Source of the DNA: Minisyncoccia bacterium
Lineage (GTDB): Bacteria > Patescibacteriota > Minisyncoccia > Phycocordibacterales > PALSA-1337
Assembly (NCBI GenBank): GCA_049997795.1
Contig: JBEKVT010000003.1
Location: forward strand, 1-58,465
Reading direction: 5' to 3'
DNA: 58,465 bases
Numbering within the stretch: position 1 is the first letter of the stretch; each line of letters starts with the position of its first letter. The notes below the pieces were generated by a model. It was given only the letters and a program-made list of their open reading frames with translations. It searched no databases and was not told where the DNA came from. The translations under genes were made by a program, and so were the position numbers. Positions 2,401-33,938 of this stretch are shown here, in pieces.

Positions 2401-5400
2401 TTAATAGTAGAACAGGAGCTGTTTGAAGCATTCCAGGTTGAGATGGCGGTTCAACCAGAGATATCTCAAGCCATCCACCGTCGTGAAGATCTCCATGCGG
2501 TTCCCCACAGTCGTCGAGCCGGCCGCGTAAGGATACAGGCCCGCGCCGTGCACCCAGTTGGTTATGAGGTCGATGTAATAGACGCGCATGGTGAGGTCCT
2601 TGGTGAAGTAGAGCCTGTCGCCGCCGTCATAGGCGTACATGGAGCTTTGGCCCAAAGGCTCGAAGATCGGGGCGTAATGCATCATGGCCCACCTGTCGGT
2701 GGTCAGATCCAAGCGGTCGATGCCGGCCACGGCGGCTCCCCTCGCCGCGAAAAGATACTTACCGCGCTTGGTCACGTCGGACAGGCCGAAGGCCCATTGC
2801 AAGGTATGGCCGACGCCGTGAGTCGGAGCGGAGATGATCGAATATGAGGTGGCGTTGGCGGTCGGCGCGGAAGAAACCGCCGTACCCCACGTAATGGTCC
2901 CGGTAGCAGCAGCGGTCGCGCTGATCACATACGATTCCTGGGCAGAGCCGCCGCTCGACAGGAATTTGAGCTTCTTGCCCATCAAGGCGCTGGTGTTCCA
3001 GGCACATAAGATCAACGGAGTATTGACTGCGCCGGAATTGGCGACCGATACGGTGATGCTTGTAGAGCCGGCGCCGCCAGTGACTTGAGTGCCGACGTTG
3101 ATGCCGGCTCCAGCGGTTATATACCAGCCCGTCACGTTCGCCGGACAGGCGACAGGCAGAGTAAGGGTATTGGACTGCGCCGAGCCGGTACAGTTCGTAA
3201 CGGATGACCAGAAGGCGTTGGCGTCGATGACCGTCGTAGTCGTACCGCCCGTCGCCACGCCGCTGTAGTAAGTAGTGGTCGAGCCTTCGTTCGCGGCTCC
3301 GATGCAATCGCGCTTGGCGATCATGTATCTCGTAGTGCCCGCCACCATCGCTTGGGCGAAATTGGCAAGCGGGGTCAGAGAGTTGCCCGTGTTCGTAGTT
3401 ATCTGCATGCCTTGGCCGCTGGATTGACCTGTGGTCAGGGCCACAGCGCCATAATTGCCGTAGACCATGCAGTTGCCCCAAGGCGAGCTGAAAGTGACGG
3501 CGGCGTTGGTGGTGGCGGTGTTGACGACCGACATGACCAGGTTGGCGGTGCCGGCGCCGGAGACGACAGTCGCTCCGATGCCGATGCCTGTGCCAACCGC
3601 GTACCAGCCGTTGATGTAAGTGGGGGTCGGAGCGGACATCGTGACCAGCAACGAGCCGAGCGAGCCGGATGAAGCAGTGCCAGATGCCGCCGGCGCCCAG
3701 GCGTTGAAGGTGATGACGTTCCCCGAAGGTGAGCCGGTGTTGGGGACGGAGAGGGTGAGTGTCGTGGTGCCGGCCCCGGAGACGACCTGGCAGTAGGTGG
3801 AGCCCACGGTGCTGATGCCTGTCCCGGTCACGTACCAGCCGTTGATGTTCGAGGGGGTGTTCCCCGCGAAGGTGACGGTCGAGCCGGGATAGGCATCGCC
3901 GTTCGCCACCTGGCGGTGGTCCTTGGAGCCGTCATAGATGACAGCGACGCCCTGGGCGCCGACGCCGACGGCGTTGGCCCCGGCCGAAGCGGAGATGTTG
4001 TACGTGAATTGGTTCACGGCCGGAGAGCCGGTCGTCGTTATGGTCGTTATCTGCTGCAGGCCGTTGTAGTACTGGACGTCGCCTGAGGTCGTGGCTCCCC
4101 TTATGGAGACCCACTGGCCGACCAGGAGGTTGTGGGAGTTCACGGTCGTGACGGTGGCCACCGTGCCTGTCCTGGCGATCGTGGAGATGGCTATGGGCGG
4201 CTGCTCGTATATGACGTGGTTGGCGTCGCAGAGCATGGCGGCCATGGTGCAGGCCACGCCGGTGTCGAGGATACGGCCGTGGGAGACCTGGTCGAAGTCG
4301 CCGTTCTTGTACAGGAAGAGCTCGGCGCAGCCGGGGGCGGCCGTGGCCCAGGTGAAGTACATGTTGCTCGAGTCGCCCTGGATGACGTAGACGGAGTCGG
4401 TCGACGGCTGGACGTTCCAGTTGTTGTACAGGGTGAGGGTATCGGCAGTGTTCGAGAGGATGGACCGGAGCTGGCCCATGCCGGTGCCGGCCAGGATCCT
4501 CACGCCGAAATTGGCCCATTGGTTGGTGGTCCAGGTCTTGCCTGTCTGGGTCAGGGTGTTATAGAGGGAAGATGTCGAGGTGCCGGCTTCGAAGCCGATG
4601 ATCTCGTAGCGGGAGGTGGCATCGGGCGGGGTGGTTATCGAGGCGAAGGTCAGGGTGTTGGCCGTGTTCGAGGCTATCTTCGAGATCTGGCCACGGCCGG
4701 TGCCTGAGTATATGTATAGGTAATAGTTGGCCCATTGGTTGGCCACCCAATATTTTGTTTTGTCGATCAATACCATGTTGGTACCGGTGGCAGTTGAGAT
4801 GCTGTGAACGTAGATGGTTGATTCCTCCGTCACCCTTTCAAGACAGAGGTCGGTAGCGATATCAGGAAGCATGCCGCTTAAGACCGGTTTGGCGTACCAG
4901 ACATCAGCTAGGACGTCATAGTACTGCAAGGTAAAACCGTACGGATTGGCTTGAGTGGACAGGAGCCAGACGCCTCCCGACTGGATGACGTACCTCGATG
5001 TGTTATCGGGCTGAGTGTCCCAGGCTGTATCGACGGTCACGACCGAAGATTCTATCTGGTACATAGTGTCAGTCGAGGGATTCGTCGACCAGACGGTATT
5101 GCACCAAGGATCCTCCGCGTGCTTGTTGGCGTCGCCTATGGTGAGGACTGTGTCGGTGCTGTACATGATCTTGTGGACCTGCAAGAGACCGGTGCCGAAT
5201 GTCGTCCTCAGGGCATAGCCGACCCATTTGTTGAGACCTAACGTCGTTCCCACATATCCGGTAGTCCAAGTCTTTGTCGTGTCAGCCAAGGTCGTTGCGC
5301 TACCGCCTGTGGCGACACCGTAATCGGCGACCACCGGATCGGCGACAGAGGTAATGTACCGTTCCTGTCCGGCGCCCTTGCCGCTTATGATCGATATCTT

Positions 5401-5751
5401 GAAGCCCTTGGCGCTTCCGGCGAAGGTCAGACCGGTCGTTATGGTGGTGGCTCCGGAGACGATTACCCTGCCGAAATATCCCAGAGTACCGGCGAACCTC
5501 ATCGAGGCGACGGTGGCCGGGGCGTTGGGCGGCGTCGTCAACTGTTCGTACGTATCCGACCATGTGTCGTATCGCCAGAAGTTCGTCTCGGTCTTCATGA
5601 AATATACGTATCTGCCGCTCGTCACGTTAAAGCTGCCGCTATCCGAAGCGCAGGAACAGCCGACGGTCGTCGGAGTGATCTGGGCCATCCTGCACCATTC
5701 CCATACCGGGGAATCGACTTGCCTTTTCAGCTTATTGGTTAAGGGCGCCAT
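2401..5751 (-). CDS. very large repetitive beta-rich protein (Kelch-like termini, internal repeat modules), function unknown
   Basis: 1116-aa uninterrupted ORF. Three NGWY repeats (N[IV][NT]GWY..G.GI..G..V.GGAG...[LI].[LMV]SV). At least four copies of W..N.W......I.SG.G.GQ.R.I.SNT..TLT....S.Y.I-like modules. No obvious signal peptide. Confidence 0.75.
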   Translation of the reverse strand: MAPLTNKLKRQVDSPVWEWCRMAQITPTTVGCSCASDSGSFNVTSGRYVYFMKTETNFWRYDTWSDTYEQLTTPPNAPATVASMRFAGTLGYFGRVIVSGATTITTGLTFAGSAKGFKISIISGKGAGQERYITSVADPVVADYGVATGGSATTLADTTKTWTTGYVGTTLGLNKWVGYALRTTFGTGLLQVHKIMYSTDTVLTIGDANKHAEDPWCNTVWSTNPSTDTMYQIESSVVTVDTAWDTQPDNTSRYVIQSGGVWLLSTQANPYGFTLQYYDVLADVWYAKPVLSGMLPDIATDLCLERVTEESTIYVHSISTATGTNMVLIDKTKYWVANQWANYYLYIYSGTGRGQISKIASNTANTLTFASITTPPDATSRYEIIGFEAGTSTSSLYNTLTQTGKTWTTNQWANFGVRILAGTGMGQLRSILSNTADTLTLYNNWNVQPSTDSVYVIQGDSSNMYFTWATAAPGCAELFLYKNGDFDQVSHGRILDTGVACTMAAMLCDANHVIYEQPPIAISTIARTGTVATVTTVNSHNLLVGQWVSIRGATTSGDVQYYNGLQQITTITTTGSPAVNQFTYNISASAGANAVGVGAQGVAVIYDGSKDHRQVANGDAYPGSTVTFAGNTPSNINGWYVTGTGISTVGSTYCQVVSGAGTTTLTLSVPNTGSPSGNVITFNAWAPAASGTASSGSLGSLLVTMSAPTPTYINGWYAVGTGIGIGATVVSGAGTANLVMSVVNTATTNAAVTFSSPWGNCMVYGNYGAVALTTGQSSGQGMQITTNTGNSLTPLANFAQAMVAGTTRYMIAKRDCIGAANEGSTTTYYSGVATGGTTTTVIDANAFWSSVTNCTGSAQSNTLTLPVACPANVTGWYITAGAGINVGTQVTGGAGSTSITVSVANSGAVNTPLILCAWNTSALMGKKLKFLSSGGSAQESYVISATAAATGTITWGTAVSSAPTANATSYSIISAPTHGVGHTLQWAFGLSDVTKRGKYLFAARGAAVAGIDRLDLTTDRWAMMHYAPIFEPLGQSSMYAYDGGDRLYFTKDLTMRVYYIDLITNWVHGAGLYPYAAGSTTVGNRMEIFTTVDGLRYLWLNRHLNLECFKQLLFYY

Positions 5752-6916: not shown

Positions 6917-6955
6917 GGCCCTGCTTTCCTCACGGAAAGCAGGGCCCTATTTTTT
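6917..6955 (+). terminator. intrinsic terminator
   Basis: 13-bp stem GGCCCTGCTTTCC / GGAAAGCAGGGCC, loop TCAC, then CTATTTTTT. Confidence 0.85.
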
Positions 6956-7032
6956 CCACCGCTACTGACTAACGACCACCGTTAGCAGACATTGGAATCA
7001 AGTAAATAAGGCTTTTTCGCTTTTTCTCGATT

Positions 7033-7383
7033 CTATCGTCTAAGCATTGTGATCCAATGCAAAATAATCCCTATCACCAAATAACAGACTAGGTAAGGAA
7101 CTACGGTACAGACTGCATTAAAAAAATTGCTGACGAATATATCCGGACCCCACATCAATCCGATTTTAAGCAATGCCCCGAAATATATAGTGTTGTATAA
7201 CACACAGCCCCACATTCCCCATCGCTCCGTCATATCTTTCAGAGTGGCGAAAACGACCGTGAGAAAAATGACTACTGTTACGGCAATCCGATACTCAGTT
7301 AAAAATGACGTTAAAACAGACCAGTACAGTTGAATCAGTTGCTTTGTCCCGTCGTCAATGGCTTCCATAAATGTATTTGGCAT
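7033..7383 (-). CDS. hypothetical membrane protein (cassette 1)
   Basis: 116 aa with about three hydrophobic helices. No recognised family. Confidence 0.5.
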   Translation of the reverse strand: MPNTFMEAIDDGTKQLIQLYWSVLTSFLTEYRIAVTVVIFLTVVFATLKDMTERWGMWGCVLYNTIYFGALLKIGLMWGPDIFVSNFFNAVCTVVPYLVCYLVIGIILHWITMLRR

Positions 7384-7496
7384 TTCCTTGGAAACTATGT
7401 AGCAATAGATAAGACAATGATAGCTCTACCAGTGACCCAAATGATAACAAAAGATTCTTTTGAACTCTCTTCATGCTCTTATTTTACCACGATTCT

Positions 7497-7530
7497 GTGA
7501 CCCATATTAGTGGAGATTGGAAACGGATCA
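7497..7530 (-). repeat. cassette repeat R1 (diverged copy)
   Basis: GTGACCCATATTAGTGGAGATTGGAAACGGATCA aligns with R2 and R3. The -35 position next to it is degenerate (ATCGTG). Confidence 0.5.
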
Positions 7531-7560
7531 TTGACAGCATCAAGTATATTTATATTTTCA

Positions 7561-7599
7561 TATAACAAGAACCCGCCAGAGGTCCTACAACATGGCGGG
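7561..7599 (-). terminator. putative terminator after cassette 2 gene
   Basis: Stem CCCGCCA/TGGCGGG followed by a T-rich tract on the minus strand. Confidence 0.45.
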
Positions 7600-7622
7600 G
7601 AGATATTTCTATTTACAGAGAC

Positions 7623-8096
7623 TCAGTAGTATCCTGGAGGCGGTACGACCCAGTCGCCATGGAGATGCTTCTCAGCCTGCTCAACAGTCCAGGCACGATG
7701 CGCATAGCCAAGATTACTGAATGAAACGAATGATGCGCCGAAATAATCATGTGAAGTAAAGCCCGGACCCCTTAAGGGCGGGAGCTCGAATTCACGATAT
7801 TCCACTGCGCAAACGAGACCATCAATGATCCTCTTCAGATCAGCGAGAGTCCCTGTTCGGAAGTTCTGCTTGGGAGGATTCGCATCCGAAAACAAGAACA
7901 CTGGATATACCCTCGGACGAACCGGGCTCTGCGGCCAGCCTTTTTTCTTGAATACCTTGCGCATGGATCGGATCTCATCATCATAATCTTCCGCGCGCAC
8001 TGCTCCCGTCACACCGTTATGAGAGCAGACGTAGATCAACGGCCTCTGGGGATACAGATCCCAGAATCTCCTAAGCAACGATTTCAATGTGCTCAT
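7623..8096 (-). CDS. hypothetical protein (cassette 2)
   Basis: 157-aa ORF with protein-like composition. No recognised family. Confidence 0.55.
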   Translation of the reverse strand: MSTLKSLLRRFWDLYPQRPLIYVCSHNGVTGAVRAEDYDDEIRSMRKVFKKKGWPQSPVRPRVYPVFLFSDANPPKQNFRTGTLADLKRIIDGLVCAVEYREFELPPLRGPGFTSHDYFGASFVSFSNLGYAHRAWTVEQAEKHLHGDWVVPPPGYY

Positions 8097-8183
8097 GACT
8101 TACTCCTTAGACTGCCTCATTTATGTTCCCTTCCAACGCCATGTTGGGGAGTGGGTTAAAACAAGGGCTTACTGTCCAAACAG

Positions 8184-8212
8184 ACATTATCATATTTAAT
8201 ACATAATGTCAA
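8184..8212 (-). promoter_or_regulatory. sigma70-type promoter (TTGACA-N17-TAATGT)
   Basis: The reverse complement of 8207-8212 is TTGACA. The hexamer TAATGT lies 17 nt downstream. Confidence 0.55.
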
Positions 8213-8215
8213 TCT

Positions 8216-8244
8216 GTGACCCTCGTTAGTGAGAATTGGAATCA
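8216..8244 (-). repeat. cassette repeat R2
   Basis: GTGACCCTCGTTAGTGAGAATTGGAATCA. Matches R3 at 28 of 29 positions and lies 3 nt from the TTGACA box. Confidence 0.8.
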
Positions 8245-8290
8245 GTTGATATTACATCTGACAAATTTCAATGGCCAAATCTGATATATA

Positions 8291-8322
8291 GAAAAACCGC
8301 CCGAATCGCAAGACCGGGCGGT
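8291..8322 (-). terminator. intrinsic terminator after cassette 3 gene
   Basis: Stem ACCGCCCG/CGGGCGGT followed by TTTTTC on the minus strand. Confidence 0.6.
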
Positions 8323-8341
8323 CTTTTCGAATCGGGCGGAT

Positions 8342-8833
8342 CTAACCGAGCGCTCTTTGCATTAAGGCCTTGAGCTCTTGAGCTGCGGGTTGGCGCATTA
8401 TCTCCTCAAGACCATCGAGAGCTGCAGGCGTCAGGTATCCTGAGCCCCCTCCATTGATATCCATCCAAGAGCTTACAGTGTGGACGCCGTCGATCCCCAT
8501 CGCAGCAAGCTTTTCAGCAAGACAGCGCAGGTACCGGTGATAGGCGTAAAACTGTTCGGCCTTGAGCATGAATGACGGGCGAATCTCAATCTTATAATTC
8601 CGATCGGTCCATGCGGATTTGTCCCGCATTTCCACTTCGCCCATCCAACGTATGCTCGGAGCGATTTCTCCGCCGACATAGCGCGAAATCCACGGATAAT
8701 CCTTATCCACCTGCTTGACGAACAACCTAAGGGACTCAGGGTCAAGATGCGCATCGTCCATGACGCTGAAGCTTATGAATCCGCTCACGTTGAACTTCTG
8801 TTCGTTCCAGTGAGTCTGTTGGTTGGCCTCCAT
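8342..8833 (-). CDS. hypothetical protein (cassette 3)
   Basis: The ORF track extends to 8959. I place the start at the ATG at 8833 (MEANQQTHW) because AGGAGG lies 7 nt upstream and the extension covers a leader hairpin. Confidence 0.55.
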   Translation of the reverse strand: MEANQQTHWNEQKFNVSGFISFSVMDDAHLDPESLRLFVKQVDKDYPWISRYVGGEIAPSIRWMGEVEMRDKSAWTDRNYKIEIRPSFMLKAEQFYAYHRYLRCLAEKLAAMGIDGVHTVSSWMDINGGGSGYLTPAALDGLEEIMRQPAAQELKALMQRALG

Positions 8834-8958
8834 TGGAGAACCTCCTATATGTGAGGGGCGGAATTGCCACTCAGCAGTTATTTCTGCTTTCAAGAGGCAC
8901 TTGGCTGTATCCTGAAAGCAGAAATAACTGAATCCCAATATAAAAGAACTACCATACA

Positions 8959-8988
8959 ATTATAGCATATTTGATGCAATATTGTCAA
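8959..8988 (-). promoter_or_regulatory. sigma70-type promoter (TTGACA-N18-TATAAT)
   Basis: The reverse complement reads TTGACA atattgcatcaaatatgc TATAAT. Confidence 0.65.
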
Positions 8989-8991
8989 ATA

Positions 8992-9020
8992 GTGACCCTC
9001 GTTAGTGAAAATTGGAATCA
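8992..9020 (-). repeat. cassette repeat R3
   Basis: GTGACCCTCGTTAGTGAAAATTGGAATCA, 3 nt from the TTGACA box. Confidence 0.8.
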
Positions 9021-9071
9021 AATTATTAATGAAATAAAACTGTTTTCCTATTTTACTTAGGCATTCATGTT

Positions 9072-9108
9072 GAAAATAAATAACGGGCACCTCCTGCGAA
9101 GCGCCCGT
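9072..9108 (-). terminator. intrinsic terminator after cassette 4 gene
   Basis: Stem ACGGGC/GCCCGT followed by TATTTATTTT on the minus strand. Confidence 0.5.
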
Positions 9109-9138
9109 GTGAATTTGTTTGAGTGTCTGTTTACGGTC

Positions 9139-9798
9139 CTAGTTTGATGCAGTTCGACGCCCGACTTGTGACTTCATGAACGCAAAGCCATATGAGGGAT
9201 TCCAGATCCCCGTATCGACGTCAACGTCGACATAACCAGTCAACCCGAAGTTATTGAAGCCTGAGTCCATATCCACGCAGAGAAGACGGGGGTCGTTTGT
9301 AAGATGGTCTTCAGGAGGATGAATATATGGCTTGTGCATGACAACAATCCGCCAAAATCCCATCTCAACAATTTCCCGTGGCGTTAGCGCGTCCAATATC
9401 AGACAAGCCACCTCTTGATGGGGGGACATCAGACCACGTCGAGTCGCTTCAGCGATGATATTATTCGTGGTACGGTTTTTGTCCGTGAAAAGGCCCGGTG
9501 TGAGAACAGCGACCTCAGTCACGATTCCGAGCGTCGGCTTGAAATCTGGCGAACGAAGAACTGATTCAGCTTCATCATCCACTTTCAACTCCTTTTTCTT
9601 CAATCGTTCGACCCACTGCGAACCGGTTGTACCACCGGACGTAACCGAGAAGTAAATGACTCCTGCTCGATTCGTCCACGGAAAACCTAGTTCCGTTATT
9701 TTGAGCTTACCTCGGAGCAGTTTCCGCACCCCGTCCATGCCGCCAAGCCTGTTGACGACCGCCTCCATTGTCCCCAGATCTAATCGTGGGTATTTCAT
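9139..9798 (-). CDS. hypothetical protein (cassette 4)
   Basis: 219-aa ORF. An AAAGGA SD-like element lies upstream of the ATG. No recognised family. Confidence 0.6.
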   Translation of the reverse strand: MKYPRLDLGTMEAVVNRLGGMDGVRKLLRGKLKITELGFPWTNRAGVIYFSVTSGGTTGSQWVERLKKKELKVDDEAESVLRSPDFKPTLGIVTEVAVLTPGLFTDKNRTTNNIIAEATRRGLMSPHQEVACLILDALTPREIVEMGFWRIVVMHKPYIHPPEDHLTNDPRLLCVDMDSGFNNFGLTGYVDVDVDTGIWNPSYGFAFMKSQVGRRTASN

Positions 9799-9949
9799 AC
9801 ACTATCCTTTCATCAACTGTTAGTTGTGATCTATGCACCTCTGAGAGAGATGTATGCTAGGACAGTCAGTAGTCATAGCCAGAGAACACCGAAGTTTCAG
9901 TATCTTCTGGCTATGGCTACTGAATTGGTAAATTTAAAGAACTACGAAC

Positions 9950-9979
9950 ATAGTAGCATATGTTATGCGTATTTGTCAA
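9950..9979 (-). promoter_or_regulatory. sigma70-type promoter (TTGACA-N18-TACTAT) abutting the tRNA 3' end
   Basis: The reverse complement of 9974-9979 is TTGACA, 3 nt after the end of the GGGGTCAC string that terminates tRNA-Glu(CUC). Confidence 0.55.
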
Positions 9980-9983
9980 CTAG

Positions 9984-10058
9984 TGACCCCATCGGGATTT
10001 GAACCCGAGTTCCAGGATTGAGAATCCTGTGTCCTGGACCAGACTAGACGATAGGGCC
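9984..10058 (-). tRNA. tRNA-Glu (anticodon CUC)
   Basis: Acceptor GGCCCTA/TGGGGTC (two G-U pairs), anticodon stem CAGGA/TCCTG with loop TT-CTC-AA, T-arm TCGGG-TTCAAAT-CCCGA. The 5' base overlaps the murF stop codon. Confidence 0.85.
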
Positions 10059-11386
10059 TATGCTTTCTCGAGCCATTCCTTCTCCTGCCGCACAAGGAGT
10101 TTAGCGGCTTTGTGCGGCTCCCGCAAGAGCGCCTTGGAGACGCGCTCCATGCGCACGGACTGGGAGCCCTTGACCAGGATGACGTCGCCGACCTTGGCGA
10201 TCGAAGCGGCGTAAGCGGCGGCTTCGGCGGAAGAATCGAAAGAACGGACGGATTCAGCCTGAAGGCCGCTCTTCATGGCTTCTTCAGCGGTCAGACGCGA
10301 GCGCTGGCCGACCGTGATGAGCCGCGAGATAGCCCTTGCCGCTTCCCGACCGATCTTCCTGTGCTCTTCGGCGGAATATTTGCCGAGCTCCATCATGTCG
10401 CCGAGGATAGCTATCTTAGCGCCCTGACATTCAAGGCCTTTGAGCGTTTCCAAAGCGGCCATGGCCGCATCCGGCGAGGAATTATAGGAATCGTCTATGA
10501 GAGTCGAGCCGTTCAGACCGGGAAGGACGTTCATGCGGCCCTTCGGAGCTTCATAAGCCGTCAGGACGAGAGATCGGGCGATCTTGCCGGAAGCGATGCC
10601 GCACGCCTTCCCTACCGCCGCGGCGGCGAGGAGCGGGTACACGCACGATCGGCCGAGGACGCCGCGGACGGAAATCGGCGCAGCGGTATCATCCAGGCCA
10701 AGATTGAACGAGATGCCGACAGGCTGGCCTTCGTATATGACGCTCATATCCGAGCCTTTGGCCGCGGCTTTCTCATCCAGGCCGTAAGAAATTACGGAGA
10801 CATCACGGTCTTTCACCCGTTCGGCGAGACTGGCGGCTTTTTCGTCGTCGGCGTAGACGACCAGGGCGCCGCCCTTCTTCACCGCTCCGGCCAGGGCGGC
10901 TTTCTCCTCGAAGACCGCCTCAGGCGAGGCGAAGAACTCGACGTGCACCGGCATGTCGCTTATCTTGGTGATGACCGCCACGTCGGGACGGAGCCAGCGG
11001 ACCACGCGCCCGATGTCGCCGGGGTGGTCGGCGCCGATCTCCAAGACCAGGCAATCGGGGTAATCGGCCTCCGAGAAGACGAGCTTGAGGCCGGCCCAGA
11101 TGTTCTTCGCCCAGCCCGAGGGGCTGCGCCAGGCGTTCGGCCTTCCGATCAAGGCGAGCGGCAGGCCGATCTCGCTGTTCAGGCTCTTCTCGCTCTTCCG
11201 GACGAATCGGAACGGCCGTGGCGCGGCGGAATCTCCTTCCCTCGAGAGGAGCTCGTATATGGCGTCTTTGGTCGAAGTCTTGCCGACGCTTCCCGTTATG
11301 GCCACCACGAACGGCTTATATTTCCGGATTATCAAAAGGGATTCCAGAGTCAGAATCCCTACGAGCGATTTCTTTAATAGATTCAT
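10058..11386 (-). CDS. murF: UDP-N-acetylmuramoyl-tripeptide--D-alanyl-D-alanine ligase
   Basis: 442 aa. Mur ligase P-loop ITGSVGKTSTKD, overall MurF-like layout, dcw context. Confidence 0.9.
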   Translation of the reverse strand: MNLLKKSLVGILTLESLLIIRKYKPFVVAITGSVGKTSTKDAIYELLSREGDSAAPRPFRFVRKSEKSLNSEIGLPLALIGRPNAWRSPSGWAKNIWAGLKLVFSEADYPDCLVLEIGADHPGDIGRVVRWLRPDVAVITKISDMPVHVEFFASPEAVFEEKAALAGAVKKGGALVVYADDEKAASLAERVKDRDVSVISYGLDEKAAAKGSDMSVIYEGQPVGISFNLGLDDTAAPISVRGVLGRSCVYPLLAAAAVGKACGIASGKIARSLVLTAYEAPKGRMNVLPGLNGSTLIDDSYNSSPDAAMAALETLKGLECQGAKIAILGDMMELGKYSAEEHRKIGREAARAISRLITVGQRSRLTAEEAMKSGLQAESVRSFDSSAEAAAYAASIAKVGDVILVKGSQSVRMERVSKALLREPHKAAKLLVRQEKEWLEKA

Positions 11387-11391
11387 TTGGT

Positions 11392-13104
11392 TCAGCGGTC
11401 TGGCGGTATGTCATAGTAGTTTAGAAGAAAGGTCGTCAGTTCGTCAAACGGCCGGGTCAGGGTCTCCGAGGCATACTGCGCTCCCTTGGGATAGACCTGA
11501 TACAGGAAGACGATGAAGCGCGGCTCATAAGCCGGGAAGAAGCCGAAGAACGAGTGCAGGTAACGGTCGGTGTAATAGCCGCCGTGGACCGGGTCGGCGA
11601 TCTCGGCCGTGCCGGTCTTGGCCGCCACGGTGTAGTGGTCTCTCTTCAGGGTGCCGCCGGCCAGGGCGGTGTCCACCACCGTGACGAGCATGCTCCTGAC
11701 TTCGTCGGCCGTCTGCGGCTCCAACAAGGGGCCGGCTTTCGTCGAAGAGATCTTTCTCGTCGAGCCGTCGGAGTAGTCGATCTCCTTGACGAGGTGCGGC
11801 GTGACCAGATAGCCGCCGTTCGCCACGACCGAGAGGGCCCGGGTCATGCCGATCGGCGAGACGGCCAGGCCCTGGCCGTAAGAGGCCGTGGCTATGTCTA
11901 TGTCCTTGCCGTCTTTCAGGTTGTCGGTGATCGGCGCGGCCTCGCTGGGGAGGTCGATGCCGGTCTTCATGCCGAGGCCGAAACTGTAGAAATATTTGGC
12001 GAATCCGGCGGCTCCAGTTTTCAGGGCTATCGTGGCGGCTCCGATGTTCAGGGACTGGGAGAGGATCTGCTGCATGGGGATCACCCCGCGGGCCCGGCCG
12101 TCGAAGTTGCATATCTTCTTGCCGTCGAGCGTCATGCAGCCCACGTCATCGTAAGTCGAGGCCGGCGTCTCCGCTCCCGAATCGAGAGCGGCGGCCATGG
12201 TGAGAGGCTTCATGATCGAGCCCATCTCGTAGACATGCTCGACTAGCGGGTCGGAGAAGACCTTTATATCCTTTGCGGCGGCGGTGTTATTCGGGTCGAA
12301 GGTGGGCAAGGAAGCCATGGCGGCTATCTCCCCGGTCTCCGGATCCATGACGATGCCGCCGATCTCGTCGGCGTGCCAGGTAGCCTCGGTCTCGCCGAGG
12401 ATCTTGTCGAGATAGGTCTCCACCGTCGGCTCGATGGTGGTCACAATGTCCCCGTTCTCCGCCGAGCCGAAGACCGCGCCTTGAAGGCCGGAGAAGAGAT
12501 CCGCGAAGATGTTGCCGACGGAGCTTGCGCTCGGGCGCGACAAGACGGAGTCGTAATAGCGCTCCAGGCCGTAACGGCCGGAGACGGTGGACGAAGAAAC
12601 GTCCTCGCCGACCAGGCCGAGCTCATGGGCGGCCAAGCCGTCGCCAGGATAGATGCGCCACGCTTCCGGAGCCACGGCCACGCCCGGAAGGCCGAGGCCG
12701 GTGATCGAATCGGCAGTCGGCTGATCCACTCTATGAGCCAGCTCTTCATACGAGTCGTTCGGTTTTCCGGCCTTGGCGAGGAACGAGGACCGATCGAGAC
12801 TCAAATAGTGCGACAAGGCTTCGTACGTCCCGGCGGCGTCGCGCACGAGCTTCGGGTTCATGTATATGAGATAGCCGGTCCCCAGGGCGGCCGCGGCCGT
12901 TTTCGTGCCGTCCTTGCCGGAGAAGTATATGGCGCCGCGGTCGAAGAGCTCTACCGCGGGTTTCCCGTACTGGGCCTCGGCCTTGGCGGCGTATTCCTTG
13001 CCGTGGATGACGTCCGTCGAATATAAGGCGGCGGCGATCGCGCCGGCGCCAAGGAGAGCGCCGATCCCAGCGAGGCGCGTCCGCAGACGCTGTTTAGAGT
13101 TCAT
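11392..13104 (-). CDS. ftsI: class B penicillin-binding protein (FtsI-type transpeptidase)
   Basis: 570 aa. N-terminal TM helix plus the motifs SIMKP (SxxK), SQSLN (SxN) and KTGTA (KTG). dcw position. Confidence 0.9.
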   Translation of the reverse strand: MNSKQRLRTRLAGIGALLGAGAIAAALYSTDVIHGKEYAAKAEAQYGKPAVELFDRGAIYFSGKDGTKTAAAALGTGYLIYMNPKLVRDAAGTYEALSHYLSLDRSSFLAKAGKPNDSYEELAHRVDQPTADSITGLGLPGVAVAPEAWRIYPGDGLAAHELGLVGEDVSSSTVSGRYGLERYYDSVLSRPSASSVGNIFADLFSGLQGAVFGSAENGDIVTTIEPTVETYLDKILGETEATWHADEIGGIVMDPETGEIAAMASLPTFDPNNTAAAKDIKVFSDPLVEHVYEMGSIMKPLTMAAALDSGAETPASTYDDVGCMTLDGKKICNFDGRARGVIPMQQILSQSLNIGAATIALKTGAAGFAKYFYSFGLGMKTGIDLPSEAAPITDNLKDGKDIDIATASYGQGLAVSPIGMTRALSVVANGGYLVTPHLVKEIDYSDGSTRKISSTKAGPLLEPQTADEVRSMLVTVVDTALAGGTLKRDHYTVAAKTGTAEIADPVHGGYYTDRYLHSFFGFFPAYEPRFIVFLYQVYPKGAQYASETLTRPFDELTTFLLNYYDIPPDR

Positions 13105-27815: not shown

Positions 27816-29504
27816 TTACCATTTATCTTTTTCCCCAAATATCCTCAACCTATCTTTAGGATGCTTCTGATTTAGCTTTCTTAAAATAGAGTTTGCGAGA
27901 GATCGAAAACCCTTCCAGCCGCCACCCTGTTGAGAAACGTAGGATCTACTGAACTTCATTCCTTTAAGAGGTTTCAAGTACTGTTCAAAATCAAGATCTG
28001 CTTTAGGATATTTTTCCATTATCCTTGATAAAACCAATAGTAAGGCATTTATACCAGCTGGTTTTAAAAGAGAATATTGTTTTATATTTTTCCATGGGTC
28101 TCTTCTTGGGCTTGTCTTTGTTGTATTTTTCTCAACCCCACCAAAATATCTACGTAAAAGATCCGACTGTTTTTTAAGAGAGCCCTGATTTTTTAAATTT
28201 TTCAACTGAGCCCTATCATTAAATGGAGCAAATTTAAATAGCACACCTTGATAATCATGTGCTTTCTTGTTAAATCCCAATAAGCCCTCCAAAAGACCAT
28301 ACCTAGCAAAGCTTGAAAGAGATATCGGTCTTCTCCCATCTAGTTCAGATATCTTTACCCTATCTTTGAACGATCCCTTCTTATTTAACTCTGATACAAG
28401 TAAACTTGGCCATGTGAGTTCATTAGTAAGGTCTGGCACTGATCTTGCTAAGTCGCACAAGAGGGTGGGGTCAATTTTCTTTTGGTTGTAGTTTATGCTA
28501 ACAAATGTTCGGTTCTGCATAACATCATCGAGTTTCCTAAAAGCCACAACAGGCAATTTAAATTCTTCTGCCGGATCATCAGGATCAGTGTCTTCAAACT
28601 TTGTACCTAGGAATCCAAATATCCGATGCTGTCCATCAATAATCCATGCGGAAGAATATATCTTTGGAAATTTCAAGATACCATTTGTATAGGATATCTT
28701 ACCCTGAATATCTTTATCATCATCAAATGCTAGAATGATCGCATTGGGCAAGATAGCTCCCTTCGACTTTATAAAATCAGAAACCTTTTTGATTCTATCT
28801 TTATTGAGAATACGCTGATAAGCCTCAGGTTTGCCCGAGGCTCTTCGAGAAACATAACCAATTTTTAATAAAACCGCAGGATAAACACCTAGTAGATACA
28901 TTTCCCAGTCACCCTGTCTTATCTGTACAGCCCCTTCTTTACATATCTGGCGCTCCTCAAAACTTATATTGAACTCTTTGTATAGCTCGTACTTAATCCA
29001 TTTTCCAAGCGTTCTACCAACCTTATTATAATAAATGACAGCATTATTATTCCAAGCGATAAAACCACGTCTTTGAAATGTCTTCGAAAGTGTGACGAAT
29101 TTCTCAACATCAAAATATTTCCCAAATACATAACATACTTTCACCTTATCTAAATTTTCAAGATCAGTTATCTTTATTTTATTATCCGCCGATGAAATCA
29201 GTTTTGACCTACCGCCTTGAATTTTTTGGATGTCTGCTTCCCAGGAACTAATTTCCTTATTTATTGAATCAAAATTTTTTCCTCCCTTACATTCAAATAT
29301 GAAAATAAACTTTTTACCTCTGTTTTTGCCATACATCACTACATCAGCAGAACGTTCCACTGTAAGATTTCCATCTTCCTCTTTATCCCCAGTAAAATTA
29401 AGAATAACCTCCTTGTCAGAAGAAATTTCACAGGTTGAGGCAATATCCTGAATCTTTCTTTTCAATCGTTTGTGCTCAACTGTCTCTTCGAGATTTGGGC
29501 TCAT
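27816..29504 (-). CDS. DGQHR-domain (DndB/ParB-like) protein with an N-terminal PD-(D/E)xK-like module
   Basis: 562 aa. Literal DGQHR motif (WIIDGQHRIFG), preceded by YQRILNKDRIKKVSDFI and followed by FVSINYNQKKIDP. The N-terminal ~190 aa carry SADVV...FIFIFECKG, a D...ExK nuclease-like signature. Confidence 0.8.
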   Translation of the reverse strand: MSPNLEETVEHKRLKRKIQDIASTCEISSDKEVILNFTGDKEEDGNLTVERSADVVMYGKNRGKKFIFIFECKGGKNFDSINKEISSWEADIQKIQGGRSKLISSADNKIKITDLENLDKVKVCYVFGKYFDVEKFVTLSKTFQRRGFIAWNNNAVIYYNKVGRTLGKWIKYELYKEFNISFEERQICKEGAVQIRQGDWEMYLLGVYPAVLLKIGYVSRRASGKPEAYQRILNKDRIKKVSDFIKSKGAILPNAIILAFDDDKDIQGKISYTNGILKFPKIYSSAWIIDGQHRIFGFLGTKFEDTDPDDPAEEFKLPVVAFRKLDDVMQNRTFVSINYNQKKIDPTLLCDLARSVPDLTNELTWPSLLVSELNKKGSFKDRVKISELDGRRPISLSSFARYGLLEGLLGFNKKAHDYQGVLFKFAPFNDRAQLKNLKNQGSLKKQSDLLRRYFGGVEKNTTKTSPRRDPWKNIKQYSLLKPAGINALLLVLSRIMEKYPKADLDFEQYLKPLKGMKFSRSYVSQQGGGWKGFRSLANSILRKLNQKHPKDRLRIFGEKDKW

Positions 29505-30415
29505 GGTAAATTCTTTATTCTCCTTAGACCAAAATTTAGGAACTTACTGTTCAATTCAATTCCAACAGAGTTCCTGTTTAACTTACCTGCGGCTACAGAG
29601 GTCGTAAATGTACCAGCAAAAGGATCTAATATAGTGTTGCCTTTATTACTACTGACTTTTATAAAGAGTTCTAGCAAGGCCAATGGTAGTTGGCAAGGAT
29701 GGTCTTTCCTTCTCAATTCAGCCAGTGAAGACACTGGTTTAAACTTACTATTTAAGTTTCTGAGACGGTCTTTTGAATTGTTTTTTAACAAATCGACGTC
29801 AATAACATCAACTAATCCTTTTTGTAATTCTATTAGGTCTAAAAACCGAAATAGATCATATGATGTTCTCCCTTTATGTCCCTGTGCGATTCTTTTTCTT
29901 ATGACAGGTGCTGTTGGATTTTTATAATGTTGAATCAGCTTCTCTCTATTAAAAGAATAGTTCTTTGTTTTTGTAAAAAACAATATGCTTCTTTGACTGC
30001 GTGTGTAATTTTTACTTGAATGGCCAATATTGGTAGGATAATGCCAGGTAATCCAACCGCGATAATTCAAGTTCAATTCATCCTCAAGAAAAGGAAGGAG
30101 GCGTGCACTGATTTCTGGATAACTAATTATATAAAAACTTCCTTTGTCGTTGAGTATTCTAGGAATATCCTTTAATCTACTTTTTAGCCACTTATAATAT
30201 TCTGACTGAGATCGCGAGTCATTAAACTTATCTCCATAATCAAGACCTTTATTGTATGGGGGGTCAGTGATAATAAGATCAATACTCCCTACAGGTAGAG
30301 ATTTTATAACTTCTTCACAATCTCCTTTAACTAGAAGATGTTTAGTGCGACCTTTTTTAATAAGATCTCTTTTAAAGCCGCCCCTTTTTACTGATTCAAT
30401 AATCTTCTGCATCAT
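29501..30415 (-). CDS. beta-class N4/N6 DNA methyltransferase
   Basis: 304 aa. Catalytic DPPY (IITDPPYNKG) precedes the SAM-binding DPFAGTFTT. This permuted order is typical of the N6_N4_Mtase family. Confidence 0.9.
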   Translation of the reverse strand: MMQKIIESVKRGGFKRDLIKKGRTKHLLVKGDCEEVIKSLPVGSIDLIITDPPYNKGLDYGDKFNDSRSQSEYYKWLKSRLKDIPRILNDKGSFYIISYPEISARLLPFLEDELNLNYRGWITWHYPTNIGHSSKNYTRSQRSILFFTKTKNYSFNREKLIQHYKNPTAPVIRKRIAQGHKGRTSYDLFRFLDLIELQKGLVDVIDVDLLKNNSKDRLRNLNSKFKPVSSLAELRRKDHPCQLPLALLELFIKVSSNKGNTILDPFAGTFTTSVAAGKLNRNSVGIELNSKFLNFGLRRIKNLP

Positions 30416-33400
30416 TATATTTTAACAATTTCCATAGTAATCTTTTCTGTTTCAACTAACACCGCAATTATTTTCTGATAGTGTTTAATCTCTTCACTAG
30501 TTAGCCTTTTCCCCTGCCGATCTTTCAACCACTTCTGTGCCGGCTGGTAGCCGCCTATATAGAAATTCCAGGCAGTCTCTGGCACACCGCCGAAATATTG
30601 CATTTTATTGATAAAGACTTTGTTGTCCTGATGCTTTGGATACTTCGCCTCGACAGTATCACTTCCGGATTCCGGGAATGTCGTTATGAGCGTATTCAGC
30701 TTCGGCGATTCCATGAGGTGAAGCTCGCGCAATTCCCTGCCCAAGGCCACAAGTAACTTGAATGATTCTGTATCTCTCGGATACGGCACGCGAGGATAAT
30801 CGATCTTAAGGAATTCCTTGTATTTCTCTCGATAAGTCGGAGAATATAAAACTGCGTAAATATAATCAAAAATGTCTTCAGGAAAAACCTCACCAACAAT
30901 TTTTTCTATTTGCTCAACAATTCCTTTTTGAAGATTTGGTAATTTCGAATTGTCATCGGCGTACAGGTAAAGTGGAAATACATATGTTTGATCACTTACG
31001 GCATGAATATCAGAAATATCCTTCGTGACAAGACTCCTATCAAAATCTTGAGTCGGTGGAATCATTCGGCTCGTAAGTAAAGACAGGTTGTCCTTACCAA
31101 CGATATTTTTATTTGTCTTTTCCCTTGGGTAAGCGATAAATCCTTTGGAATGACCCGTGTAGACTGTAAAACGCGTATCAAATGGTCTGTACTGAATTTT
31201 TTCAACCCTTGAACCATCCTGAAGATCTTTTTTTGCCCATTCAACTTTCCAATCTCGTCCATCTTCCGGTAGATGATATTTTTTACGAATTTCTTCAACT
31301 GGGAGATTTTGCATATCAACTGCAACAGTCTCAATATCTTCTTTGTCAAATCTTATGGTTAAATCATCACGCTTTGTCTGAATGCCAGAATTGTATTCAT
31401 TGAAAACCTCAATTACAGAGAACCCTTTCTTGTATTCACTCCCCGTACCAAAATCCTTCGGCACAAAGAAGTAATACGGCTCGGCATATTCGAGCTTGTT
31501 CCACTTCATCGTTGCCAGATCGCTTTTATTGAGCACTTCAAATTTGCTCTCGCGTTTTCCATATAATTCGGCGTGATACACAGTGCCCAGCTCTTTCTTT
31601 TTTCCTTCCTTTCGTACAAAGATTGAAATGGCTACGCCTTGCTGGATGTCAAAGACATTCTCATCTTTGCCGCCATTGGGCGCTTTCTCCTTCTTTTTGG
31701 AATTGCCGTGTAAATCAAGTATATAAATACTGTCGAAAGTTTCCAGTAAATGTTTCCTCATCTGCCGATGCGTAATGCCGTCAATGTACGAATTGTTGGT
31801 GATCATAGCCACGACACCACTCCCGTTCTTCTCGATAAAATGTTCCGAGAGGCGAAGGAATTTAATGTAATCATCGTCGAGGTTGATCTTGCGCTCGCCC
31901 AAATATTTTTTATAGACCTTGATAAGCTCTTGTATCCATTCACCTTTATTGGACGAGCTCACGCTATACGGCGGATTTCCCATAACCACCATGATTGGTG
32001 TTTCGTTCTTGATCTTGGCCGCGGCCTTGCTTTCATCGGTAATACTCTGCCCGAAACCGAATCCGAAGAGCGATTCTTCGACCTTAACTCCCTCCTCCAG
32101 CGAATTCGTCAGGTAAAACCCAAGGCGATGGTTGAAATCGGTGATGCCGCTGTCATGTAGAGTCATGGCAATCTTGAGGTGCGCAATAGTATATGGTGCC
32201 ATCATCAGTTCAAATCCATGCAAGCGCGGCAAAAGGTCGTTCTCGACATACGATTTCCATCTCCCTTCCTGATCTTTGAAACGCGCGAGGATATTTTTCA
32301 CCACTTCATTCAAGAAGGTGCCCGTCCCCATCGCCGGATCTAGAATCTGGACTTTATGAATAGATTCTTTACCGTTCTTACCTTGTTTAGTCGTCTTGAC
32401 TTCGATCTCTGTCGTATTGGAAAGCCCGCCGGCCAAGCCGAAGTCTTTTTCAAGGAGGTAATCGGTGGCACGGACGATGAATCGCACCACAGGTAAGGGT
32501 GTATAGAATGCTCCAAGCGCCTTGCGCTTCTCGGCATCGTACTCTTTCAGAAAATCCTCGTAGAAATGTATGACTGGATCAACCGACTCTTTGTCATCGG
32601 AGCCATGCAGACCTTTTTGCGTCACATAGGCGTTCATGAGGGCGTGGACATCAGCGTTCTTGAACACCTCGCACAGTTCATTGACAATGATGGCCAGGCG
32701 TATATCGAAATCCGCGCCAACGATATGATCAAAGAAACTGCGCAGGAACGGATTGGAATGCGGCACCAGGTCGCGTGCCTCGGCACGGGTGAAATTACCG
32801 GTAGTCTTATCTTCATATCGCGCTGCGAAGAGACCGTAGACCAGCGTCTGAGCATACATGTCAGCGAATTGATCTTCGGACAAGTCGTGAATCAAGATCT
32901 TTTTGAACGATTCATACATACGCCGAAGTTCCTCATTTCGTCCATGCGGATTAGACACATACTCGCTCACTTTAGAGCGAATACGCCGTGCCTTATCTCC
33001 CATGATTTTCGCCAGTTTAGTGCTTGAGGTAATTGCTTCAGTCTGTGTTAGAAAGGTCTTGATCGCATCCTCCAGATCAGCATATGCTTTTTCATTCGGC
33101 ACAATTTCATTGTTAACTAATTTCGCAACAATGATTGGCTCACCATATTTATTGCCATGCCGATAGAAGCGGAACTCCAGGTAGTTAGTAAGAATGAGCG
33201 AACCGTATTCGAGATACCGTTCCATCTGCTCACTCTTTTCAGTATCATCAAGATTCTCCTTCACATCCTTAGCTTCAGCATAGCCAGCGCTTAATTCTTT
33301 AGAACGCATCAAGGCGAAGTCTGGTGCGCCGTGCTCGGAATGCTTGGGATCGTTTATAGCCTGTAATCTCGGCACGACGGACTCAAAAAGTGCTTTCAGG

Positions 33401-33489
33401 GCAGGACGATAGGCGTGTTCAGTCGCCTGACCGCTCTTGAATTCAGCAATTATTGCGGAAATATAAACTTCAACCGGATTTTCTTTCAT
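30415..33489 (-). CDS. single-chain Type IIG/IIL-like restriction-modification enzyme (nuclease + gamma-class N6-adenine MTase + specificity domain)
   Basis: Start set at MKENPVEVY (33489). N-terminal GAPDFAL-x13-EAKD (PD..ExK). MTase motifs FYTP, DPAMGTGTF and NPPY. C-terminal YPRVPYP ... GGYQPAQKWLKDR as in type ISP / MmeI-like C-terminal domains. No helicase motifs. Confidence 0.8.
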   Translation of the reverse strand: MKENPVEVYISAIIAEFKSGQATEHAYRPALKALFESVVPRLQAINDPKHSEHGAPDFALMRSKELSAGYAEAKDVKENLDDTEKSEQMERYLEYGSLILTNYLEFRFYRHGNKYGEPIIVAKLVNNEIVPNEKAYADLEDAIKTFLTQTEAITSSTKLAKIMGDKARRIRSKVSEYVSNPHGRNEELRRMYESFKKILIHDLSEDQFADMYAQTLVYGLFAARYEDKTTGNFTRAEARDLVPHSNPFLRSFFDHIVGADFDIRLAIIVNELCEVFKNADVHALMNAYVTQKGLHGSDDKESVDPVIHFYEDFLKEYDAEKRKALGAFYTPLPVVRFIVRATDYLLEKDFGLAGGLSNTTEIEVKTTKQGKNGKESIHKVQILDPAMGTGTFLNEVVKNILARFKDQEGRWKSYVENDLLPRLHGFELMMAPYTIAHLKIAMTLHDSGITDFNHRLGFYLTNSLEEGVKVEESLFGFGFGQSITDESKAAAKIKNETPIMVVMGNPPYSVSSSNKGEWIQELIKVYKKYLGERKINLDDDYIKFLRLSEHFIEKNGSGVVAMITNNSYIDGITHRQMRKHLLETFDSIYILDLHGNSKKKEKAPNGGKDENVFDIQQGVAISIFVRKEGKKKELGTVYHAELYGKRESKFEVLNKSDLATMKWNKLEYAEPYYFFVPKDFGTGSEYKKGFSVIEVFNEYNSGIQTKRDDLTIRFDKEDIETVAVDMQNLPVEEIRKKYHLPEDGRDWKVEWAKKDLQDGSRVEKIQYRPFDTRFTVYTGHSKGFIAYPREKTNKNIVGKDNLSLLTSRMIPPTQDFDRSLVTKDISDIHAVSDQTYVFPLYLYADDNSKLPNLQKGIVEQIEKIVGEVFPEDIFDYIYAVLYSPTYREKYKEFLKIDYPRVPYPRDTESFKLLVALGRELRELHLMESPKLNTLITTFPESGSDTVEAKYPKHQDNKVFINKMQYFGGVPETAWNFYIGGYQPAQKWLKDRQGKRLTSEEIKHYQKIIAVLVETEKITMEIVKI

Positions 33490-33535
33490 TCGTACAATTC
33501 TAACACTTTTGAGAAAATTCGATACTTTAAGGAAA

Positions 33536-33931: not shown

Positions 33932-33938
33932 GATGCCT

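Follow-up and report, generated by a model that had tools for sequence, protein, structure and literature searches.

Organization of the tRNA-Glu(CUC) locus

The DNA analysed here (the window, 58,465 nt of a genome of ~657 kb) comes from a member of the Patescibacteria (Paceibacteria/Parcubacteria-like) whose genome has a G+C (GC) content of ~60% and whose MurF is at most 66% identical to that of any species representative. Adjoining its tRNA-Glu(CUC) gene is a 3-kb tract with a GC content of 0.46 over 6972-9982, compared with 0.58-0.60 in the flanks, which contains four co-oriented open reading frames (ORFs) of 219 (209 as called), 163, 157 and 116 amino acids (aa). The core at the end of the tRNA gene and four copies of a repeat delimit four single-gene units, and the tract is bounded on both sides because repeat 4 (6972-6999) closes its far end. 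The comparisons presented below indicate that the tract is probably a tandem array of four small integrative units, accreted at the 3' end of the tRNA gene by the action of a large serine recombinase (LSR) system, one that on this explanation is common in the lineage. An earlier reading of the letters (the first-pass annotation) had described four single-gene units stacked at this tRNA gene in an AT-rich tract, and both descriptions hold. The features of the locus, from murF outward, are the following.

11386-10058, minus strand: murF, directly 5' of the tRNA-Glu(CUC) gene
9983-10058, minus strand: tRNA-Glu(CUC), found with ARAGORN and Rfam; proposed bacterial attachment site
9990-9983, minus strand: last 8 nt of the tRNA gene, GGGGTCAC, containing the shared core
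9950-9982, minus strand: left arm of unit 1 (putative P' arm of the element); TAG, TTGACA (9979-9974), N18, TACTAT (9955-9950)
9866-9923, minus strand: long leader hairpin of unit 1, 28-nt arms, 82% complementary
9139-9798, minus strand: cargo gene c1, 219 aa (called as 209 aa from 9768)
9083-9108, minus strand: terminator-like hairpin of unit 1
8992-9060, plus strand: repeat 1; putative P arm of 28 nt (8992-9019) and putative displaced integrase tail frame, VTLVSENWNQIINEIKLFSYFT and stop
8959-8991, minus strand: left arm of unit 2; TAT, TTGACA (8988-8983), N18, TATAAT (8964-8959)
8875-8930, minus strand: long leader hairpin of unit 2, 21-nt arms, 95% complementary
8342-8833, minus strand: cargo gene c2, 163 aa
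8297-8339, minus strand: terminator hairpin of unit 2
8216-8284, plus strand: repeat 2; putative P arm and tail frame, VTLVSENWNQLILHLTNFNGQI and stop
8184-8215, minus strand: left arm of unit 3; AGA, TTGACA (8212-8207), N17, TAATGT (8189-8184)
7623-8096, minus strand: cargo gene c3, 157 aa
7568-7586, minus strand: terminator-like hairpin of unit 3
7497-7565, plus strand: repeat 3; putative P arm (7497-7524, 6 mismatches) and tail frame, VTHISGDWKRIIDSIKYIYIFI and stop
7033-7383, minus strand: cargo gene c4, 116 aa, hydrophobic
6972-7043, plus strand: repeat 4, the most decayed copy (8 mismatches at 6972-6999, ACG replacing GTG); distal end of the array
6917-6946, plus strand: strong hairpin in the native flank just past the array

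The heptamer GGGTCAC is common to the tRNA end and repeats 1-3 and is degenerate in repeat 4. The 29-mers at 8992-9020 and 8216-8244 differ at one position, as first noted, and were the sole matches in a scan of the window allowing up to 3 mismatches, where 0 are expected. The stretch 7497-7530 was rightly called a decayed copy (repeat 3); the copy at 6972-6999 had been overlooked, and with it the mismatches rise with distance from the tRNA in the series 0, 1, 6, 8. Contiguous identity between the repeats and the tRNA end is just 7-8 nt, and no partial copy of the tRNA gene (last 16 nt, up to 2 mismatches) is present in the window. The repeat is not a displaced tRNA terminus, as had been proposed, and is better read as an element-side arm joined to the 3' tail of an integrase gene, for the reasons given below.

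Distribution of the repeat

Eighty related loci (given L numbers here) were fetched through MurF and searched for the repeat by Hamming and nhmmer scans. The murF-tRNA-Glu(CUC) synteny is kept in 72 of the 80, and all good nhmmer matches (L001, L024, L025, L026, L031 and L071) lie downstream of, and co-oriented with, tRNA-Glu(CUC); the repeat in L001 has only 2 mismatches although the MurF of L001 is just 66% identical. A pattern scan of metagenomes yielded 13 further stretches with the repeat. Seven of these contain a tRNA-Glu gene (CUC or UUC), and in all seven the repeat lies downstream of that gene; several metagenome loci hold 2-3 copies (multi-copy arrays in L086-L089, L092, L105 and L106). 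A scan of viral contigs for the repeat gave 0 matches, and Rfam at a relaxed threshold returned from the window and the island only the tRNA, plus chance miRNA-like matches on the leader hairpins.

The interval between tRNA-Glu(CUC) and csp is a hotspot of variation, ranging in relatives from ~100 nt (L007 and L034, where it is empty) to 8.2 kb (L035). Its content is unrelated among genomes and often low in GC, so the four genes are not conserved, syntenic core genes. In view of its position, the repeat might be a promoter-proximal regulatory site (an operator or UP-like element) of a local regulon, with the tract formed by duplication, and its fixed spacing upstream of a -35 box in three window units and at several other loci would fit such a role. 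This reading is disfavoured, to the point of being scarcely credible: many copies are followed by no promoter (L001, L024, L086, L088, L090, L092, L105, and repeats 3 and 4 of the window), variation among the copies follows the codons of the opposite strand, the cargo genes are mutually unrelated, and the repeat was never found away from tRNA-Glu genes, as a generic genome-wide promoter motif would be.

The second tRNA-Glu gene of the window, tRNA-Glu(UUC) at 155-226, ends in GGGCTA and not in GGTCAC. Between it and tRNA-Val (843-916) lies a low-GC spacer (227-842) without the repeat, containing a small hydrophobic ORF on the minus strand and a consensus-like promoter. The corresponding interval in relatives measures from 40 nt (L006) to 4.8 kb (L087), and in other Paceibacteria (L086, L087, L093 and L105) it harbours arrays of the window repeat.

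A coding frame on the opposite strand

On the opposite strand every repeat copy opens a short frame of 22-33 codons at GTGACC, with the pattern VT[LH]VSE[NY]W[NK]Q[LI]. Nine diverged copies show synonymous exchanges for Leu (CTC/TTA/TTG/CTA), Arg (CGG/AGG/AGA) and Gly (GGG/GGA/GGT), and likewise for Ser. For the frame in which the LSR of L025 continues (see below), the ratio of nonsynonymous to synonymous polymorphism (pN/pS) is 0.27; the mirror antisense frame gives 0.39 and the remaining four frames ~1.1-1.8. By this substitution pattern the tail frame is coding and under purifying selection. Over the first 28 nt, third codon positions are conserved as well (entropy 0.63 vs 1.77), so a constraint on the DNA site itself appears to be superimposed on the coding constraint. 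None of the tail frame copies has a Shine-Dalgarno sequence or a promoter; conservation begins exactly at GTGACC, and the sequence upstream differs in every copy. An amphipathic heptad-like pattern is visible in the alignment of the tails. A profile search with the tail against 5.8 billion proteins returned only 3 short ORFs, and upstream of the copies the frame stays open for at most 68 codons, for which reasons the frame was rejected as the truncated end of a long protein. Arrays of precursors of ribosomally synthesized and post-translationally modified peptides and type I toxins were dropped as well, since the anatomy is unfit (no Shine-Dalgarno sequence, and a peptide that is not hydrophobic).

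Large serine recombinases at the same tRNA gene in relatives

All loci were scanned for recombinases with regular-expression motifs, followed by tblastn (E <= 1) and Pfam searches. In relatives, the motif scan revealed serine-recombinase genes (~500 aa) that directly follow tRNA-Glu(CUC) and lie on the other strand. While the window lacks an integrase, as the first-pass annotation had stated, LSR genes or remnants from at least three families abut the tRNA gene in at least 16 of 72 related loci. Pfam Resolvase and Recombinase domains are present in all five LSRs tested (L002, L025, L048, L003 and L091), with Zn_ribbon_recom in addition in three (L025, L002 and L091). The N-terminal domain matches solved structures of resolvases and of TP901-1 integrase, and the best phage matches are staphylococcal phage serine integrases, with 25% identity over residues 3-475; a scan of viral contigs with the L025 integrase found no relatives.

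The intact LSR frames run into the tRNA gene. Family A ends in KSQL-VT-LPGVEPGLQP and a stop codon, where VT is encoded by GTG ACC, the complement of GGTCAC, and the base at which conservation of the tail begins is precisely the one where three LSR families enter the tRNA. The element in L025 measures 3358 bp from the tRNA to a distal repeat of the window's family (VTHIIRDWKQIVEYLTDFKRFIRL...), its attachment sites attL and attR share GGTCACCAATTG, and repeat 3 is the window copy most like its distal tail. When the ends of this element are joined in silico, an uninterrupted integrase frame of 515 codons results, running ...KSQLVT-HIIRDWKQ...EDAL to the stop (KSQLVT followed by HIIRDWKQIVEYLTDFKRFIRLNDEDAL). 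Because of this frame continuity the "small ORF" of the repeat would be the C-terminal tail of the integrase in the excised element, or in an element with another unit at its left. The L025 element is the only one that looks complete; its integrase frame (11351-12841) lacks an upstream start codon, beginning directly behind a stop codon with the catalytic motif IYCRVSS, and the element is probably already inactive. In L091 a distant serine integrase (3-995, 22% identity to that of L025) crosses the GTGGGTCAC core ~36 codons before its stop in another frame (C-D-P) and takes its tail from the neighbouring cassette, a window-type tail being found 0.8 kb further (1801-1869); this suggests that different integrase families share the same core.

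Could the tail frame instead be an independent small-protein gene carried by each cassette, for example for a maintenance or regulatory peptide, with the GTGACC start a coincidence? The clear purifying selection would fit, as would the amphipathic pattern and the fact that all of the ~25 copies are free-standing, with 22-33 codons. Such a gene would lack a ribosome-binding site and a promoter and would have different upstream sequence in every copy, its conservation would start by chance at the base where three LSR families enter the tRNA, and it would happen to continue the LSR frame in L025. The tail-coding "flankA" unit of another LSR family behaves alike. In L024, sequence like the tRNA-adjacent flank (an LSR tail remnant found in L024 and several relatives) recurs after the terminal repeat, and Rfam gave no match for the flankA unit of L024. 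We consider an independent gene quite unlikely and favour a displaced integrase tail.

Remnants of LSR genes are also found next to the tRNA. L036 holds those of two families in tandem, and L024, L032, L045 and L049 hold LSR 3' fragments. A unit of ~150 nt that follows the tRNA in ~16 relatives corresponds to the tail-coding 3' remnant of an L051-type integrase, which reads through a partial tRNA copy into the unit; from these alignments the ~150-nt unit is at least in part such a remnant. Direct copies of a genome's own tRNA 3' end, 16-21 nt long, are found 150-240 nt after tRNA-Glu(CUC) in L020-L024, L032, L038, L043, L045, L046, L050, L051, L056, L059, L077 and L083. They are exact in most loci (19-21 nt exact in ~16 relatives) and track the genome's own variant, e.g. 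GGGCTAC or AGAGTCAC. The ~150-nt unit enclosed by them also bears an inverted tRNA-3'-like arm interrupted by a hairpin, and in L059 and L083 it is present in two tandem copies.

The 3' ends of tRNA genes are the classical targets of tyrosine integrases, and together with the exact 19-21-nt copies of the tRNA end in ~16 relatives this might point to a tyrosine-recombinase system of the classical tRNA island, tycheposon or integron type as the maker of the array. No tyrosine recombinase was found in the window or in the 106 loci by a crude motif scan, every recombinase found at tRNA-Glu is an LSR, the partial tRNA copies sit inside LSR 3' ends or remnants, the repeats lack attC-like dyads, and the cassettes bear predicted promoters. 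A tyrosine recombinase is thus a most improbable author of this array. The first-pass annotation had set the tract apart from both classic genomic islands and promoterless integron cassettes, and this distinction is sound: the window contains no partial tRNA copies and no attC dyads, the motif scan found no tyrosine integrase in it, and predicted promoters are present. Integron attC sites and IS200/605-type ends were dropped as candidates because there are no palindromes, and Xer/dif modules because there is no dyad site of the 11-6-11 type.

Unit heads and putative promoters

Read on the minus strand, the tRNA end is followed by a promoter-like sequence, GGGGTCAC + TAG + TTGACA-N18-TACTAT. 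The repeat at 8992-9020 is followed by GGGTCAC + TAT + TTGACA-N18-TATAAT, and that at 8216-8244 by GGGTCAC + AGA + TTGACA-N17-TAATGT. Two of the predicted promoters are near-consensus (10-12 of 12 positions, with a TG extension), that of unit 2 matching at 12 of 12; unit 3 has a weak -10 element, and no consensus promoter was detected for unit 4. The proposal that each unit has its own promoter 3 nt after the tRNA end or repeat therefore applies in this form to units 1-3, with two near-consensus promoters, and the hairpin terminators proposed for all units were seen, as terminator-like hairpins, 3' of units 1-3. Within the tail frame of repeat 3 a promoter-like TTGACA-N16-TATTTT (7531-7558, plus strand) points away from unit 3 and is probably due to chance.

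Although their cargo is unrelated, units 1-3 have left arms that show homology over 35-75 nt; the arm of unit 1 is 81% identical over 36 nt to the arm following repeat 1. In c1-c3 the P'/promoter module abuts the core directly, and the beginning of the leader, too, is common to c1 and c2. Integrase-less cassette heads of the form "core + 3-4 nt + TTGAC" stand after the tRNA or after repeats in at least six other loci (L028, L081, L082, L086, L087/L093, L089 and L106). On the integrase strand the sequence next to the core reads [S/C]-Q-x before V-T. The LSRs have KSQL-VT, the P' arms of integrase-less cassettes have KSQY-VT (L087) and KSQF-VT (L089), and the left arms of window units 1, 2 and 3 have ICQL-VT, YCQI-VT and, directly after a stop codon, CQS-VT. 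Since the P' arms keep these terminal integrase codons, TTGAC(A/T) would be the complement of the (A/T)GT-CAA codons and the exact 3-nt gap would be one codon. On the reading supported by these codon patterns, the attachment site's P' arm has turned into a -35 box or serves as one in addition, and the predicted promoters may be active.

The decay of integrase genes in place clearly happens in relatives, as seen in L036, L024, L032, L045, L049 and the start-less gene of L025. The window tract might accordingly be what is left of four full-size, integrase-carrying elements whose LSR genes were deleted after integration, the cassettes never having been mobile as such. The pseudogenes and fragments inside the relatives' arrays (two families in L036, 3' fragments in L024, L032, L045 and L049, the start-less gene in L025) are what such a history would leave, and the rise of repeat mismatches with distance from the tRNA is compatible with it. 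Against this, the searches of the window island revealed no LSR remnant; independent deletions in c1-c3 would all need to have ended at an identical position, given that the P'/promoter module abuts the core in each; and the same integrase-less heads are found in at least six other loci. We regard decay in place as unlikely for the window, and non-autonomous cassettes are favoured over four precise deletions because the units share both arms yet contain neither an integrase nor a fragment of one.

Cargo genes and other low-GC tracts

The proteins encoded by c1-c4 match no Pfam, PADLOC or PHROG family and are unrelated to one another. They had been taken for orphans, and this does not hold for three of the four. 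The c1 protein has 58 homologues and belongs to a Patescibacteria family of ~200 aa found at unrelated loci (after csp, after tRNA-His and elsewhere); its AlphaFold2 model, with a predicted local distance difference test (pLDDT) score of 89, has no fold match in the PDB. In every genome looked at, genes of the c1 family have long leaders with one or two strong hairpins (L094 3670-4000, L096 3740-4000, L097 3835-4000, window 9799-9982); the stem sequences differ among genomes, so the leader may be a conserved structured 5' untranslated region. The c1-family gene of L097 lies directly after tRNA-His, with CTGACA abutting the tRNA end. The c2 protein has 5 homologues at unrelated loci, and its model (pLDDT 75) shows a generic ferredoxin-like alpha+beta fold with weak fold matches only. 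These include S-adenosylmethionine (SAM) lyases, but a SAM lyase function is not assignable from weak matches of a generic fold, and modelling assigned no function to c1 or c2. For c3, with 44 homologue clusters, residues ~80-150 match a unit of ~35 residues that is repeated 6-18 times in proteins of 573-1920 aa (P0087, P0096, P0109 and P0110), and c3 may be a single-copy version of this repeat module. The small, hydrophobic c4 product is probably a membrane protein. As a whole, the array is best regarded as a flexible islet of accessory genes.

Two further regions of the window stand out. A second low-GC tract (27816-34469, minus strand, 34-41% GC) is an island of the defence type, with genes for a DndB-like protein (562 aa), an N6/N4 DNA methylase (304 aa), a 1069-aa Type ISP/MmeI-like restriction-modification fusion and a RhuM-family protein. 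Just beyond csp, at 2401-5751 (minus strand), lies an ORF of 1116 aa with no Pfam match and no tblastn match in the 80 related loci, adjoined by a 368-aa ORF with a glucosaminidase domain.

Proposed assembly of the array

In the mechanism that we propose, autonomous elements of the kind seen in relatives would carry the LSR gene on the strand opposite the tRNA, its frame spanning attP, the attachment site of the element. Upon integration the last LSR codons would come from the reverse complement of the tRNA (...VT-LPGVEPGLQP and stop), and the original tail of ~22-30 codons would stay at the far end of the element. Each window repeat would be such a far end, made up of the 28-nt P arm, the core GGGTCAC (Val-Thr, GTG ACC, on the opposite strand) and the orphaned tail. 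The sequence after the core (3 nt + TTGACA...) would be the P' arm, which keeps the end codons of the integrase and may double as a sigma-70-type -35 box for the cargo. Because the window has no LSR, its units can only be derivatives or dependants of autonomous LSR elements. Most likely they are non-autonomous cassettes, each consisting of P' arm/promoter, leader, one cargo gene, terminator and P arm, that would have been inserted serially, the newest beside the tRNA, by an integrase acting in trans. The process first envisaged for this locus, in which elements integrate one after another at the tRNA 3' end and displace older sites outward, is supported by the hotspot, the occurrence of the repeat only at tRNA-Glu, the decay gradient and the LSRs in relatives.

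The geometry of the sites gives a further hint. The repeat and the tRNA share, besides GGGTCAC, a nearby CG(N), and a G-TTC-A-T motif, noticed post hoc, is separated from the end of the core by 26 nt in the repeats and by 21 nt in the tRNA, where it is the T-loop. In LSR systems an attP half-site is longer than its attB counterpart, and the zinc-ribbon motif of attB, the bacterial site, is ~5 bp further inward than in attP (PMC3783163). The 5-bp shift seen here resembles this attP/attB geometry and, being a post hoc observation with a second half-site of no clear symmetry, is suggestive only.

Several observations weigh against the proposed assembly. No LSR gene or remnant was found in the window, which was searched with regular expressions, tblastn (E <= 1) and, for 30 larger ORFs outside the island, Pfam. 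Among ~25 repeat copies of the window subtype not one is joined to an LSR, nor was any excised form detected. The L026 repeats end in GGTCAC although the L026 tRNA ends in GGGCTAC. Presence/absence polymorphism was not seen either: the array is the same in all nine contigs of the population, which were recognized by an identical c1 protein. No convincing dyad symmetry surrounds the core, and the reconstructed attP-like junctions have no consistent centre. Finally, canonical LSRs recombine attP with attB only (PMC3783163), so insertion into an occupied site would need a less strict enzyme or homologous recombination across the conserved arms of ~100 nt. A less strict LSR is possible, since composite islands of the staphylococcal cassette chromosome (SCC) hold 6-8 copies of the integration site and include psi-SCC units without ccr (PMC3900703).

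A more far-reaching proposal joins two ideas, and as a whole it is tentative and rather doubtful. The first is that integration swaps the C-terminal tail of the LSR, which would bear a conserved amphipathic tail of ~25 residues when the element is free and a tRNA-encoded decapeptide when it is integrated; such a swap might serve as an intrinsic switch for directionality, activity or stability. The second is that promoter-bearing cassettes without an integrase amount to an integron-like form of gene capture by a serine recombinase, with both att arms present, tRNA-Glu genes as the site and an arm of the attachment site supplying the -35 box. We found no description of a serine integrase frame spanning attP with an altered C-terminus in a literature search that was not exhaustive. 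If the tail swap alters the integrase, it would be a new control of LSR directionality, relevant to genome-insertion engineering, and if the cassettes move without an integrase of their own, no smaller cargo units that depend on an LSR would be known, and each would derive its promoter from an arm of the attachment site. Mobile elements and gene flow in the Patescibacteria, or candidate phyla radiation (CPR), whose members have tiny genomes and are mostly uncultured, are poorly described. This locus suggests that tRNA-Glu genes are an insertion hotspot throughout the lineage, used by no fewer than three families of serine integrase, and the 28-mer, the VT...W tail and integrase frames ending inside the tRNA provide a signature by which such elements and their remnants can be sought in metagenomes.

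Comparison with known systems

Composite SCC islands resemble the array in their LSR-type integration at the 3' end of a conserved gene, in the tandem site copies that delimit units, many of them recombinase-less, and in their accessory cargo (PMC3900703). The likeness to these Ccr elements is drawn from layout, and the differences are considerable: the target there is rlmH/orfX and here tRNA-Glu, units of 10-60 kb contrast with single-gene units of ~0.5-1 kb in a CPR bacterium, and the delimiter is a 15-bp site there but a 28-nt arm with a displaced piece of the integrase frame here. In the tycheposons of Prochlorococcus newer elements push older ones outward, and LSRs are present in 27 of 937 (10.1101/2020.12.28.424599); the mismatch gradient of 0, 1, 6, 8 fits this pattern. 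Serial integration at tRNA genes, degenerate elements and repeats, and a flexible island in a streamlined genome are common to both. Tycheposons, like classical tRNA islands, are bounded by partial tRNA copies, typically of 15 nt or more, and have mostly tyrosine integrases, whereas the boundaries of the window units have only 7-8 nt in common with the tRNA and the units lack modules for replication or integration.

For the tail swap, the closest parallel is mycobacteriophage BPs, in which attP lies within the repressor gene and the viral form of the repressor is 33 residues longer than the prophage form (PMC4557955). In both cases attP is inside a coding sequence and integration changes, or would change, the C-terminus of the product; in BPs this concerns a repressor gene and a tyrosine integrase, whereas here it would concern the serine integrase's own 3' end. 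With integrons the array shares cassettes of mostly a single gene at one site, a recombination site at the cassette 3' end and the newest cassette nearest the insertion point. It is not an integron: it has no intI, attI or Pc and no attC palindromes, its cassettes have promoters of their own (consensus ones before units 1-2), and the recombinase associated with it is of the serine and not the tyrosine type. Cis-mobilizable elements (CIMEs), which accrete with the integrative and conjugative elements (ICEs) of streptococci, are also att-flanked units without recombination genes that stand in tandem at a tRNA-type site and are presumed to be mobilized by the integrase of another element; they are ICE-derived, depend on tyrosine integrases and are much larger than the window units. 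By analogy with these systems, the array would work like a composite SCC island or a tycheposon array while being a member of neither group.

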